A DNA stretch of 64,000 bases from the NCBI GenBank assembly GCA_963717935.1, contig CAVQXP010000004.1, positions 32,001 through 96,000 on the forward strand, written 5' to 3'. The DNA is from Candidatus Eiseniibacteriota bacterium (GTDB lineage: Bacteria; Eisenbacteria; RBG-16-71-46). Positions within the stretch are counted from its first letter, which is position 1. The number at the start of each line of letters is the position of its first letter. Below are positions 31,023-34,000 of this stretch, piece after piece. The position numbers are program-made.

Positions 31023-34000
31023 CTCGGCGACCTGCACGTGGCGCTCGGCCGGCTCGTCGAAGGTGGACGAGATCACCTCGCCCTTCACCGTGCGCTGCAT
31101 GTCGGTGACCTCCTCGGGGCGCTCGTCGATCAGCAGCACGATGAGCACGACCTCGGGATGGTTCTCGGTGATGGCGTTGGCGATCTTCTGCAGGAGGATG
31201 GTCTTGCCGGCCTTGGGCGGCGACGTGATCAGCGCGCGCTGGCCCTTCCCGATGGGCGACAGCAGATCGATGATGCGCGTCTCGATGCAGCGGTCCTTGG
31301 TCTCGAGGTTGAGCTTGTCCTGCGGGTAGAGCGGCGTGAGGTTGTCGAAGAGGATCTTCTCCTTCGCCACCTCGGGGCTCTCGAAGTTGATGGCCTCGAC
31401 GCGCAGCAGCGCGAAGTAGCGCTCGCCCTCCTTGGGCGGGCGCACCTGCCCGGAGACGGTGTCGCCGGTGTGCAGGTCGAAGCGCTTGATCTGCGAGGGC
31501 GAGACGTAGATGTCGTCGGGACCGGGCAGGTAGTTGTAGGTCGGCGAACGCAGGAAGCCGTAGCCCTCGGGCAGGATCTCGAGCACGCCCTCGGCGAAGA
31601 TCAGACCGTTCTTCTCGGTCTGGGCCTCGAGGATCTTGAAGATGAGGTCCTGCTTGCGCAGGCCGCTCGTGCCCTGGATGTCGAGCTCCAGCGCGACGTG
31701 GAGGAGCTCGGACATGGTCCGGGCCTTGAGCTGCTGGAGTTCCATGGTCTGCTGATCGGAGGGAGTCGCGGTCTGTTCCATCGTTCGCCTTCGTTTGTCG
31801 GCGCAACCGCCTCCGGGGGAGCACCTCTCGGCCGAAGACCGAAAGGCCCTGCCGGATCGCGGTGGGTGGCCGTGGGGCGGACCGGATGCCGGTCCGCTGG
31901 CCTGGGGTGGATTGGGCTCGGGACGGGTTGGTCCTGGCGGCTGTCCGCGGCTTCCGGACTGGCGTGCAGCGGCGCTGGACGGTTTCCTCGGGTGGATGCT
32001 GCGATGAATGATGAGCTGCTGGAAGGTGCTTTCGCGATGTGGCGCCGGGGAGGTCCGCACGCCCGGGGACCTGAAGGCGGGACGTGCAGCGAGCGGGACG
32101 CGACCCGCCAGTTCACGCGGTGGCGTCACCCGTTCACGTACCTAGAGTAGGTATCGGCCTGCCGGGTGTCAAGGTTGAGCCGGGGGTCGAGTGGAGTCGC
32201 GGGGCCACCCTGGACCGGCCACTACCGTGCAGCCCGGGACGTGAGGCCTCGCGAAACGCGATGGAAGTCGTGCGTGCTTTCGCCCGCGCCTTCGCACCCA
32301 GCGCGGGAATCCCGCGCCAATCGAGGGTAAAGCGCTTCGCGCGCAGGCAGGCGGGGCGTGGCACACGGCTTGCCCTCATACGGACGTGAGGGTGCGCTGG
32401 GTCGCGTCCCACCTCCGAGCCTGCCATCATCGCGCGGCCCGCCACCCCCCAATCAATCGAGACGCCCCGGGTCACGAGAGGACCCGGGGCGTCTTGTCGC
32501 TGATTGCCGGCGCGGTCCGGGCCCGCCGGGGCCCTCCCGGCCCTAGCGCACGCGGTGCGCCAGCGGGACGGTCACCTTCACGAGCGCGGGCTCCATCACG
32601 CACCAGTCGGGCAGCGACTGGGCCGCGACCTGCACCCGCAGCGTGTCGCGCCGGCCGCCGAGCCGCACGGGCTCGAGCACCACGCTGTCCAGGCGCGCCA
32701 CGGCCGAGCGCGGGCCGGTGACCAGCACGCTCTCGGGGTCCACCATGACGGCGGGGGTCCACGAGGTGTCGCTGCCGGCCGGCACTTCGATGCGGGGCGC
32801 CGCGGGCAGCCAGCGCCGCATCTTGGGCTCGATGCCGATGTCGATGACGCCGGGTCCGATCACGCGGGCCGCCTCGACGCCTTCGTAACCGGCCAGTGGC
32901 AGGTCCGCGGCGGACACCTCCCGCTCGAAACGGCCGGGGCCGATGCCGTCGAGGGAGATCTTGATGGGCGGCTCGGTGACGCGCATCCGCAGGAGTTGCT
33001 TGCCGGTCCCGCGCACCTGCGCCTGTACGGTGGAGGGCACCGGCCCCGAGAGCGAGAGCAGGTCCCCCAGGTCCTGGATCTGGACCGGGAACGACATCGT
33101 CATCTCGGCCGGGCGGTCGAGGTAGACGTTCAGGTAGACGAGCAGCGCCAGCAGCAGGGCAGCCAGCTTGAGTCCGAGGTTGTCGAACAGCAGCCCGCGC
33201 AGCAGGTTCATGCCCGCTCCTCCCCCGCGCCCGCGGGCGCGTCGCCTTCGTCCTCGGCCGCCTCGTCCCCCTCGCCGGGCTTGCGCAGACCGTGGCGCTC
33301 CATGCGCGAGTATAGCGTGCGGCGCGTCAGTCCGAGCAGCCGCGCGGCCTGGCTCTTGTTGCCCCGCGCGCGCTCGAGCGCCTGGAGGATCAACTCCCGC
33401 TCCAGCACCTCGAGCGAGAGCCCCCCGGGCGGGATCTCGGGGATCCAACCGGGGGCCGCCGTCGCGCCGCGGGACACATCCTCGCCGGAGCCGACGAAGC
33501 CCAGGTGCTCGACATCGATGGGATCGCTCCCCGCCAGGATCATGGCCCGCTCGAGAGCGTACTCCAGCTCGCGCACGTTGCCCGGGAACGGGTGGCGCTC
33601 GAGTGCCTGCAGCGCCCGCGCCGTGAGCTTGTCTTCCGAGGCCCCGTGCCGGCGCAGGAAGAACTCCGCCAGCGCGCGCACGTCGCCGGACCGCTCGCGC
33701 AGCGGCGGGACGGTGATGGGGAACACGTTCAGCCGGAAGAACAGGTCCTCGCGGAACTGCCGCTCGCGCACCATGGCCTCCAGGTCGCGGTTCGTCGCCG
33801 CGAGGATCCGGACGTCCACGGTCAGGGGCTGATTGCCGCCCACGCGGGTGAAGGTCTTCTCCTCGATCACCTGCAGGAGCTTGACCTGGAGCAGCAGGGG
33901 CAGCTCGCCGATCTCGTCGAGGAAGAGCGTGCCCTTGGCGGCGTCCTCGAAGCGGCCGGGCTTCTGGCGCACCGCGCCGGTGAAGGCCCCGCGCTCGTGG

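Follow-up and report, generated by a model that had tools for sequence, protein, structure and literature searches.

A structured RNA gene between rho and a two-component operon

The window analysed here is a stretch of 64,000 nucleotides of contig C4 from a Candidatus Eisenbacteria genome, starting at contig position 32,001. Within it, a gap of 761 nt separates rho from a YbbR-like gene, which is the last gene of an operon that also encodes a sensor histidine kinase and an NtrC-type activator. The features of the locus, in window coordinates, are the following.

30498..31781, minus strand: rho (Pfam Rho_N, Rho_RNA_bind, ATP-synt_ab)
32226..32261, no strand assigned: candidate upstream activator site, CGTGCA-N~21-(T/C)GCG-N3-CGC(A/G) (alignment of 59 upstream regions)
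32360..32375, plus strand: sigma-54 -24/-12 promoter, TGGCAC-N5-TTGC(C), sequence TGGCACACGGCTTGCC, perfect GG-N10-GC
32386..32500, plus strand: predicted small RNA of about 115 nt, with predicted ends (models R1 and R2)
32390..32447, plus strand: stem-loop 1, with 32390-32407 paired to 32432-32447 (14 pairs, 11 with two-sided changes, 93-94% of cells paired)
32408..32431, plus strand: near-invariant C-rich loop of 24 nt, CCCACCUCCGAGCCUGCCAUCAUC (alignment of 61 copies)
32458..32496, plus strand: GC-rich terminator-like hairpin of 16-17 bp with tail CUUGUCGC (fold; 10 of 10 consensus pairs with two-sided changes)
32543..33205, minus strand: YbbR-like gene, last of the kinase-activator operon (Pfam YbbR, tblastn; approximate start, stop at 32543)
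33208..34641, minus strand: NtrC-type sigma-54 activator g00748, with receiver, AAA+ and HTH_8 domains (Pfam)
34643..35971, minus strand: sensor histidine kinase g00749, with HisKA and HATPase_c domains (Pfam)

Our analysis supports that the element in this gap is a stand-alone, structured and conserved non-coding RNA gene behind a sigma-54-type promoter, divergent from rho and convergent with the YbbR-like gene. The genome-wide survey's note had described this layout, and the 761-nt gap, the promoter, the stem-loop and the GC-rich hairpin are all present. Both covariance models, R1 and R2, match C4:64380-64503 (window 32380-32503); the 5' end of the RNA is predicted 12 nt past the GC of the -12 element, and the 3' end from the hairpin. 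Insertions or deletions of 1 nt occur inside the most conserved RNA segment between species of one genus, which argues against a coding function. As the survey's note had also found, the RNA has no match in Rfam, the best being Scr3920 (E = 0.24 and 21 bits, where the cut-off is 88), and an Rfam scan of the whole window reached no gathering score.

A sigma-54-type promoter at a fixed distance from the RNA

The canonical -24/-12 promoter that the survey had proposed was recovered as TGGCACACGGCTTGCC at 32360-32375 on the plus strand. Of 62 distinct genome copies, 60 have its motif at a fixed distance from the RNA, as do all 36 metagenome contigs that extend far enough upstream, which makes 96/98 copies taken together. 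A strict scan for TGGCAY-N5-YTGCH gave 16 sites in the 3.0-Mb genome, reproducing the earlier count, and with so few sites genome-wide a chance site directly 5' of the element is very unlikely. The genome carries rpoN (one Sigma54_DBD match, C2:415225-415701) and about 16 sigma-54 activators, namely 15 strong Sigma54_activat matches and one gene in pieces.

Alignment of 59 upstream regions additionally uncovered a conserved module located 100-140 nt before the -24 element. CGTGCA occurs in 39 of the 59 upstream regions, with GTGCA at -140 to -130 in 36 of those regions, and TTCGC is found at -110 to -100 in 28 regions of the alignment. Here the module reads CGTGCA...TCGCGAAACGCGA and begins 134 nt 5' of the -24 element. 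It could be the site of the activator, or it may instead belong to rho. Elsewhere in the genome, strong sigma-54 sites lack the module, apart from a loose match at pilA. It also lies directly 5' of a putative rho promoter.

Both helices covary and the first carries a near-invariant loop

The 130-nt stretch containing the RNA folds at -66.4 kcal/mol (z = -3.75), a value equalled by 0 of 200 shuffles. Both RNA helices covary. When 30 copies were aligned by sequence alone with MAFFT, paired cells made up 94.6% and double changes occurred in 15 of 24 pairs; none of 500 shuffles reached these values, and the slid controls stayed at 35-52% paired cells. The model alignment of 62 distinct copies gave 94.3% paired cells, against 38-51% for slid controls, and double changes in 21/24 pairs, confirming the compensating stem changes proposed previously.

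The loop of the first stem has a core, A-G-C-C-U-G-C-C-A, that 57-61 of 61 copies retain. Five columns of the loop are identical in 61/61 or 60/61 copies and most others in 52-59/61, so that the loop, which the survey had called invariant, is strongly kept but only near-invariant. Across copies it has a mean length of 25.8 nt and contains 52% C and 13% G, and the linker between its stem and the last hairpin contains 41% C.

The last hairpin was previously read as a terminator followed by a U-rich tract. The GC-rich hairpin is there, is strong and covaries, but in this genome only a weak U-tract follows it, with 3 T in 8 nt of tail, and a simple terminator scan does not call the hairpin at 32458-32496. 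In the family, 37 of 61 copies carry a run of at least 3 T within 12 nt 3' of the hairpin, and the median tail has 4 T in 10 nt where about 1.5 are expected if, at 71.5% G+C, the remaining bases are shared equally between A and T.

The RNA is specific to one family

Covariance model R1 detects the RNA in 62 of 89 family genomes, 37 of the 44 of good quality and 25 of 28 genera, counts of genomes that overstate the support because related genomes are not independent. These figures exceed both the estimate of about half the family obtained earlier by blastn and our own blastn count of 46/89, a few of which are terminator-only matches. No copy was found by the model in 76 genomes from 16 other families of the phylum; within Candidatus Eisenbacteria the RNA is specific to a single family.

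The model finds one RNA per genome, with two exceptions that can be explained. The second match in G027 (L124) is missing both loop and promoter and was discarded as a false positive, and that in G039 is likely an assembly duplicate. A match to the loop pattern in a Cellulomonadaceae record (L068), with neither promoter nor model match, was attributed to chance.

The neighbouring activator probably switches the RNA on

The neighbourhood of the RNA is strongly kept. Wherever 2 kb or more of flank is available (42 loci), rho is found upstream of the RNA, no more than 800 nt away in 37 cases, and 36 of the 43 loci whose flank is long enough have an NtrC ortholog within 4 kb, 24 of them within 1 kb, bearing out the earlier claim of an adjoining activator and kinase. 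The RNA unit keeps its form at 1.2-2.8 kb from YbbR in 12 of the 36 loci, in G072 it is inverted between unchanged neighbours, and one genus carries an inserted tetR gene and an inserted peptidase gene 3' of it, all of which speaks for an autonomous gene.

We infer from this arrangement that the neighbouring NtrC-type activator and kinase probably switch the RNA on. Against this link stand the roughly 16 sigma-54 activators of the genome and four good-quality genomes (G052, G001, G055 and G009) that have an activator ortholog near rho, with 71-75% identity, and no RNA. As these four genomes keep the activator without the RNA, the activator must also do other work. Near rho and the activator gene, the DNA read from these genomes (for G052, minus about 760 bases of the interval) contains no sigma-54 motif. 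With NCBIfam models, all matches of activator and kinase fell under the cut-offs, the best being AtoC/AtoS, ZraR/ZraS and NtrC, and gave no functional hint.

Proposed mode of action and search for targets

With moderate confidence, we favour the reading that the element is an independent gene for a sigma-54-dependent sRNA of about 115 nt, activated by its neighbour, whose loop is most likely a trans-acting seed. Transcription would begin at the promoter, which is of the sigma-54 type and therefore requires an ATP-driven enhancer-binding activator. The prime candidate would be the NtrC-type response regulator of the adjoining kinase-regulator-YbbR operon, presumably bound to the conserved module about 125-160 nt 5' of the RNA start. 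In the predicted transcript, the long covarying stem would present the near-invariant C-rich loop of about 25 nt, followed by a C/A-rich linker and a putative intrinsic-terminator hairpin. The loop would most likely pair in trans with G-rich regions, such as the ribosome-binding sites of several mRNAs, and this pairing would proceed without Hfq, a protein for which no gene was found in the genome.

We searched the 89 genomes of the family for the loop complement GGAGATGGCAGGCTCGG, allowing up to 2 mismatches, and fetched 20 of the listed matches, chosen for recurring variants. This pattern search gave no conserved target site. The match that recurred corresponds to the coding motif NEMAGSGGD and was present at 6 of these 20 loci; judging from its letters, we take the protein to be an S41- or tricorn-like peptidase. 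It was rejected as a target, since its wobble base alternates between C and G and the pairing is not what is conserved. No complementary site occurs in the peptidase gene that one genus carries beside the RNA.

In the own genome, 7547 candidate start regions delimited by a crude GC3-based gene finder were scanned, and the top candidate was the ribosome-binding site of dapA (C1:75733, minus strand), which would pair over 15 nt with a single bulge. This site is missing in 28 of the 28 orthologous start regions read (30 dapA loci, leaving out that of G000 and one whose region was cut), and it was dismissed as chance. Feedback of the RNA on its neighbours was likewise rejected: compared with shuffled loops, the loop showed no excess of pairing with the start regions of rho (mean z -0.21, 52 loci), ntrC (-0.33, 32 loci) or the kinase gene (0.0, 20 loci), nor with the whole rho leader (z = -0.27, 47 loci). 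The failure of these searches, which were crude, lowers the claim of base pairing in trans. From the survey's reading of a trans-acting sRNA, the stand-alone RNA with a sigma-54-type promoter stands, and its action in trans found no conserved target in the searches.

This outcome would fit a reading in which the RNA acts by binding a protein instead of pairing with mRNAs, with the loop as a protein site or decoy. Rho, one candidate for such a protein, favours single strands rich in C and poor in G. The composition of loop (C 52%, G 13%) and linker (C 41%) and the constant presence of rho as divergent neighbour (42/42 loci) agree with this explanation, and about 25 near-invariant nucleotides are more than the usual seed of 6-8 nt. 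Long invariant seeds do exist, however, in base-pairing RNAs, as in the Qrr RNAs with their 32-nt invariant region, and gene order inside one family may have been inherited rather than selected. Moreover, the loop has neither the repeated motif of sponge RNAs nor GGA repeats for CsrA, which the genome encodes. Taken together, we consider protein binding unlikely. Its most specific form, a sigma-54-switched decoy or modulator of the termination factor Rho in which loop and C-rich linker mimic a Rho loading site, we regard as a long shot; if true, a two-component signal would tune Rho activity genome-wide, and a second sigma-54 RNA with an AUCCGAG loop would feed the same node.

The position of the element could also mean that it acts in cis on its neighbours and that its RNA product has no function. 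As a convergent transcript and two-way terminator it would limit read-through of the kinase-activator-YbbR operon, towards which it is transcribed and whose YbbR stop lies 47 nt from the hairpin; as a divergent promoter it would compete with transcription of rho, and the two have a common control region (rho lies divergent at no more than 800 nt in 37/42 loci). Such a role is improbable, given that the near-invariant unpaired loop and the covarying stems point to selection on the RNA itself and that the unit keeps its form both when it lies 1.2-2.8 kb from YbbR (12/36 loci) and when it is inverted.

Finally, all three reading frames are mostly open across the GC-rich RNA stretch, which at 71% G+C is the chance expectation, and contigs of four public metatranscriptome runs cover the conserved protein parts and the 5' region of rho but not 32035-32462, a gap that weighs little because such contigs rarely contain small RNAs. 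A conserved untranscribed DNA element or a small protein gene, the readings that these two observations would favour, is hardly credible in view of the compensatory changes that preserve RNA helices, the sigma-54 promoter at a fixed distance in 96/98 copies and the 1-nt insertions and deletions in the conserved core between congeners.

Relation to known RNAs beside two-component systems

The element belongs to a known design, and its principle has already been established by Qrr/LuxO, CrcZ/CbrB, GlmY/GlrR and Pxr/PxrR. In the Qrr/LuxO system of Vibrio, sigma-54 and an NtrC-type regulator drive a ~100-nt sRNA that has a long invariant region and adjoins the regulator gene, and several near-identical paralogs exist. 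The Eisenbacteria RNA likewise combines sigma-54 and an NtrC-type regulator with an RNA of about 100 nt and a long near-invariant region. Unlike Qrr, it is present in a single copy per genome, the second RNA has only AUCCGAG and CCUG in common with it, and Hfq was not found. Qrr is represented in Rfam and gave no match to the Eisenbacteria RNA even at E up to 10.

A close parallel is described in the available text of two reports on Pxr of Myxococcus xanthus, an RNA of ~108-110 nt for which a sigma-54 promoter is predicted together with an upstream enhancer site and which adjoins the genes of the NtrC-type regulator PxrR and the kinase PxrK and lies directly downstream of pxrR (PMC5684412, PMC5568312). 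According to the same texts, Pxr has three stem-loops, the first with a conserved loop that is essential for function and the last variable, and it is restricted to one lineage whose members lack hfq (PMC5684412, PMC5568312). Compared with these descriptions, the Eisenbacteria RNA agrees in predicted size, sigma-54 promoter with a candidate upstream site, adjoining NtrC-type regulator and kinase, conserved first loop, variable last hairpin, restriction to one lineage and no detected Hfq. It differs in having two stem-loops, in its phylum and in its arrangement: a YbbR-like gene lies between regulator and RNA, and the two are convergent. In Myxococcus, pxr and pxrR run in the same direction. 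Newer taxonomies treat the myxobacteria as a separate phylum. The survey's statement that such an arrangement was not described outside Proteobacteria calls for a caveat, since Pxr of Myxococcus, in a group that the available text classes as delta-proteobacteria, follows the same logic (PMC5684412, PMC5568312).

Similarity to the remaining systems is looser. The enterobacterial GlmY is a sigma-54-dependent sRNA encoded beside GlrK/GlrR, the two-component system that activates it. The same holds for CrcZ and CbrA/CbrB of Pseudomonas in the portions available of two reports (PMC8871633, PMC6296734). Like both, as far as those portions describe CrcZ, the Eisenbacteria RNA gene has a sigma-54 promoter and adjoins a two-component system. 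CrcZ and GlmY work by protein sequestration, binding Hfq/Crc and RapZ, respectively, through repeated motifs or sibling mimicry, and the Eisenbacteria RNA has no sequence or Rfam likeness to them. An unpaired C-rich loop is shared with RsaE/RoxS of Firmicutes, whose unpaired C-rich loop motifs pair with G-rich ribosome-binding sites with no need for Hfq; the Eisenbacteria RNA differs from these in its promoter type, in having no Rfam match and in showing one long loop versus several short motifs.

To our knowledge, the evidence on Candidatus Eisenbacteria is derived from metagenomes only, and neither the 15 best-matching of 81 papers on 'Eisenbacteria', none of them concerned with RNAs, nor Rfam yielded a described sRNA from this phylum. 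The present element would extend the design in which a two-component system acts through sigma-54 on a neighbouring sRNA to a distant, uncultured lineage with no detectable Hfq, and its covariance model can be used for annotating Eisenbacteria genomes. The close pairing with rho and the second RNA with a common loop motif offer testable hypotheses.

A second RNA with a sigma-54-type promoter

The second RNA, at C4:1312759, had been proposed as a sibling of the first with a common seed. Covariance models of the first RNA do not detect it, and it has no match in Rfam. The letters common to both RNAs are only AUCCGAG and CCUG (7 + 4), their folds differ, and in the second RNA GCCUG sits in a stem, so that the likeness claimed earlier shrinks to these short stretches. 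The second RNA itself is real: blastn shows it to be conserved in 35 of the 89 genomes, its promoters are of the sigma-54 type, and it adjoins another activator and carries AUCCGAG in its apical loop.

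A sigma-54-type promoter precedes a conserved, predicted two-hairpin RNA

Comparative sequence analysis gives good support to a new family of RNAs, of a kind already known, in a phylum without cultured members. The element lies on the + strand of the 761-nt gap between rho and a YbbR-like gene (G000 assembly, 3.0 Mb in 5 contigs; window G+C 71.5%), among the following features, given in window coordinates:

30498-31781 (-), rho, with Pfam domains Rho_N, Rho_RNA_bind and ATP-synt_ab
32360-32375 (+), sigma-54 -24/-12 promoter TGGCACACGGCTTGCC, by sequence motif
32390-32407 with 32432-32447 (+), stem of stem-loop 1, with a 24-nt loop CCCACCUCCGAGCCUGCCAUCAUC, by folding
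between stem-loop 1 and the GC-rich hairpin (+), C/A-rich linker
32458-32496 (+), GC-rich hairpin of 16-17 bp, by folding
32543 to about 33205 (-), YbbR-like gene, start approximate
33208-34641 (-), NtrC-type sigma-54 activator (g00748; receiver, AAA+ and HTH_8 domains), 5' of the YbbR-like gene
34643-35971 (-), histidine kinase (g00749), 5' of the YbbR-like gene beyond the activator

Since GC is placed at -12, the RNA is predicted to start near 32386, 4 nt ahead of the stem, which would give a transcript of ~115 nt. The strict promoter pattern occurs only 16 times in the G000 genome, the count previously reported by the genome-wide survey's note and reproduced in our whole-genome scan, so chance would not be expected to put a site right in front of a conserved hairpin. 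The motif TGGCAY-N5-NTGC precedes the start of the covariance model described below in 60 of the 62 distinct genome copies, at a distance of 20-25 nt (31 in one copy); one of the remaining two has TGGCCC and the other is a false-positive model match. All 36 metagenome contigs with enough upstream DNA also carry this motif.

G000 encodes a single rpoN along with about 16 enhancer-binding activators. At C4:502373-502872 (-), one Sigma54_activat match falls into three overlapping or abutting pieces, which suggests different frames and may reflect either a frameshift in an activator gene or faulty assembly. The sigma-54 site that had been reported at pilA was borne out by a type IV pilin gene (MFRSQKGFTLIELM...) at G000:C4:1883312 (+), which stands behind such a motif and just 3' of an activator gene.

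The predicted folding energy of the element is -66.4 kcal/mol, with z = -3.75 relative to 200 shuffles. RNAalifold, run on a MAFFT alignment that was not fitted to any structure, predicted 14 + 10 pairs, with 94.6% of paired cells compared to 86.3% in shuffles and both-side changes at 15 of the 24 pairs; none of 500 shuffles reached any of these pairing measures, and sliding the partner by 1-3 columns lowered pairing to 35-52%. The model alignment of the 62 distinct copies gave 94.3% paired cells, both-side changes at 21 of 24 pairs and slid controls of 38-51%, but it is biased towards the model whereas the MAFFT alignment is not, and the aligned sequences are related rather than independent. 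The loop (mean 25.8 nt, 52% C, 13% G) had been described as invariant; its core A-G-C-C-U-G-C-C-A is retained in 57-61 of 61 copies, so this is close to but not strictly the case, and the stems are, on the contrary, variable. The terminator-like hairpin changes sequence in almost every genus with pairing always kept. Of the U-rich tract previously attributed to it, a T-enriched tail with a T-run of at least 3 was found in 37 of 61 copies, but in G000 itself the tail is weak.

The RNA is widespread in one family

The element had been found by blastn in 14 of 25 family genomes and 8 of 14 genera, and its distribution now proves wider. In the 89 genomes of this GTDB family of Eisenbacteria, blastn gave matches in 46, and R1, a covariance model built from 30 loci, detected the RNA in 62, among them 37 of the 44 genomes of good quality; carriers occur in 25 of 28 genera. 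Nearly all carriers have one copy; an extra match (L124) was rejected as a false positive, and another, in G039, seems to be a single locus represented at two contig ends. R1 found no match in the two sister families of the order (0/10 and 0/3 genomes), and R2, a broader model searched against 121 genomes sampled evenly across the phylum, matched 39 of 44 genomes within the family and none of 76 from 16 other families.

Searching one genome per GTDB species, the exact loop pattern returned 38 loci, of which the model confirms 37. Their labels are 'Candidatus Eisenbacteria bacterium' (25), 'uncultured bacterium' or 'bacterium' (9) and other names (4), the last of which we take to be labelling or binning errors; the sole unconfirmed locus, labelled Cellulomonadaceae, lacks both a promoter and a model match. 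Metagenome contigs with this pattern number 40, and 29 of these add new sequence.

The design, a small RNA under a sigma-54 promoter beside a two-component activator, has precedents, such as Qrr with LuxO and GlmY with GlrR. Pxr with PxrR/PxrK is described as another (PMC5684412, PMC5568312), as is CrcZ with CbrB. Judged by sequence and layout, the first RNA belongs to none of these four. The best-matching literature on 'Eisenbacteria' held nothing on RNAs, and that on sigma-54-dependent sRNAs with enhancer-binding proteins concerned proteobacteria or general topics, apart from one Leptospira study, whose passages on the subject place sigma-54 sites ahead of two lipoprotein genes and amtB and link none of them to an sRNA.

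The neighbouring activator as a candidate regulator

A gap of 1 nt separates the kinase and activator frames, and the longest YbbR-like frame extends over the activator 3' end. These three genes look like one operon, convergent with the element. Control of the RNA by g00748/g00749, as proposed in the survey's note, is favoured by two observations. Of the 43 loci whose downstream flank reaches 3.5 kb or more, 36 have an NtrC ortholog inside that flank, 24 of them within 1 kb. In addition, a candidate activator site, the module CGTGCA-N~21-TGCG-N3-CGCA, is conserved 100-140 nt ahead of the -24 element (32226-32261 in G000), where such sites usually lie. However, four relatives that are 92-99% complete (G052, G001, G055 and G009) retain the activator ortholog, at 71-75% identity, on one contig with rho and gave no model match, even with filters off at the loci around rho, those around the activator gene being screened for motifs only; nor was a sigma-54 motif present in the DNA around rho and the activator gene, bar ~760 bases of the G052 interval. 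These genomes argue against a simple one-to-one link. In G009 (L128/L134, G009:C545) the rho-YbbR gap is only about 390 nt, without RNA or sigma-54 motif, although 14 of the 16 genomes of its genus have the RNA. Barring an artefact of assembly, this looks like a natural deletion. The module may also serve rho, because a TTGACA-like box follows it closely on the rho strand. Altogether, we put the chances that the neighbouring activator switches on the RNA at about even.

That box, spotted by eye, is separated by 17 nt from TACTCT (32145-32173, -) and suggests a putative rho promoter with a leader of ~360 nt (31782-32140); a simple promoter scan did not call the pair. TGTCAAG, the box as read on the + strand, recurs in 11 of the 59 upstream regions, and 31593-32016 is covered by a metatranscriptome contig of about 95% likeness.

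Possible targets of the loop

The RNA had been proposed to act in trans, but our searches yielded no target. Among the family loci inspected, the loop complement recurred only within a coding motif, taken for a peptidase motif; pairing of the loops with the rho, ntrC and kinase-gene start regions, and with the rho leader, was no better than that of shuffled loops; and the best candidate in the own genome, the dapA ribosome-binding site, is not conserved. Hfq had no family match in the whole G000 genome (93% complete), which has one CsrA gene (C2:334157-334315), and the loop contains no GGA repeats. Pairing of the C-rich loop with GGAGG-like ribosome-binding sites stays the most ordinary reading, because such sites are found in most dapA start regions inspected in the family. 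Alternatively, the RNA could bind a protein, with Rho as a candidate partner given that its gene stands divergent beside the RNA in 42 of 42 loci. Five relatives (G052, G040, G001, G055 and G009) each have a second Rho-like gene, with 54-55% identity to rho over residues 166-423.

Probably an independent gene rather than a cis element

Three findings make it less likely that the element is a leader, or acts otherwise in cis, for a fixed neighbour: it has no co-directional downstream gene in G000; in genus g3 (L071 4235-6036 (+), other loci alike) genes for a TetR-family regulator and an S41 peptidase, running in the direction of the RNA, are inserted between the RNA and the YbbR-like gene; and in the single-contig genome G072 (L109, G072:C1:461200-470400) the whole unit with its promoter is inverted between the same neighbours and transcribed towards rho. 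Protein coding is disfavoured by 1-nt indels within the conserved core among species of one genus, open frames being uninformative at such G+C content.

A second RNA with a shared loop motif

Outside the window, the following feature was identified by its sigma-54-type promoter, its fold and blastn:

G000:C4:1312760-1312912 (-) (L157 about 2255-2413), second RNA

It has its own sigma-54-type promoter (TGGCATCCGGTATGC), a long hairpin with apical loop AAGAUCCGAGGGG and a strong terminator (fold z = -4.65), and lies just 3' of another sigma-54 activator gene (C4:1313636-1314076). It had no Rfam match, and blastn found it in 35 of the 89 family genomes with an almost invariant core. The survey's note had regarded both as siblings with a common seed: conservation of the second RNA stands, as does the sharing of AUCCGAG (in its loop) and CCUG, but models R1 and R2 do not relate the two RNAs and their folds differ. 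The chance of such a shared motif within two short conserved cores, roughly estimated at about 1 in 100 to 1 in 300, is no more than suggestive.
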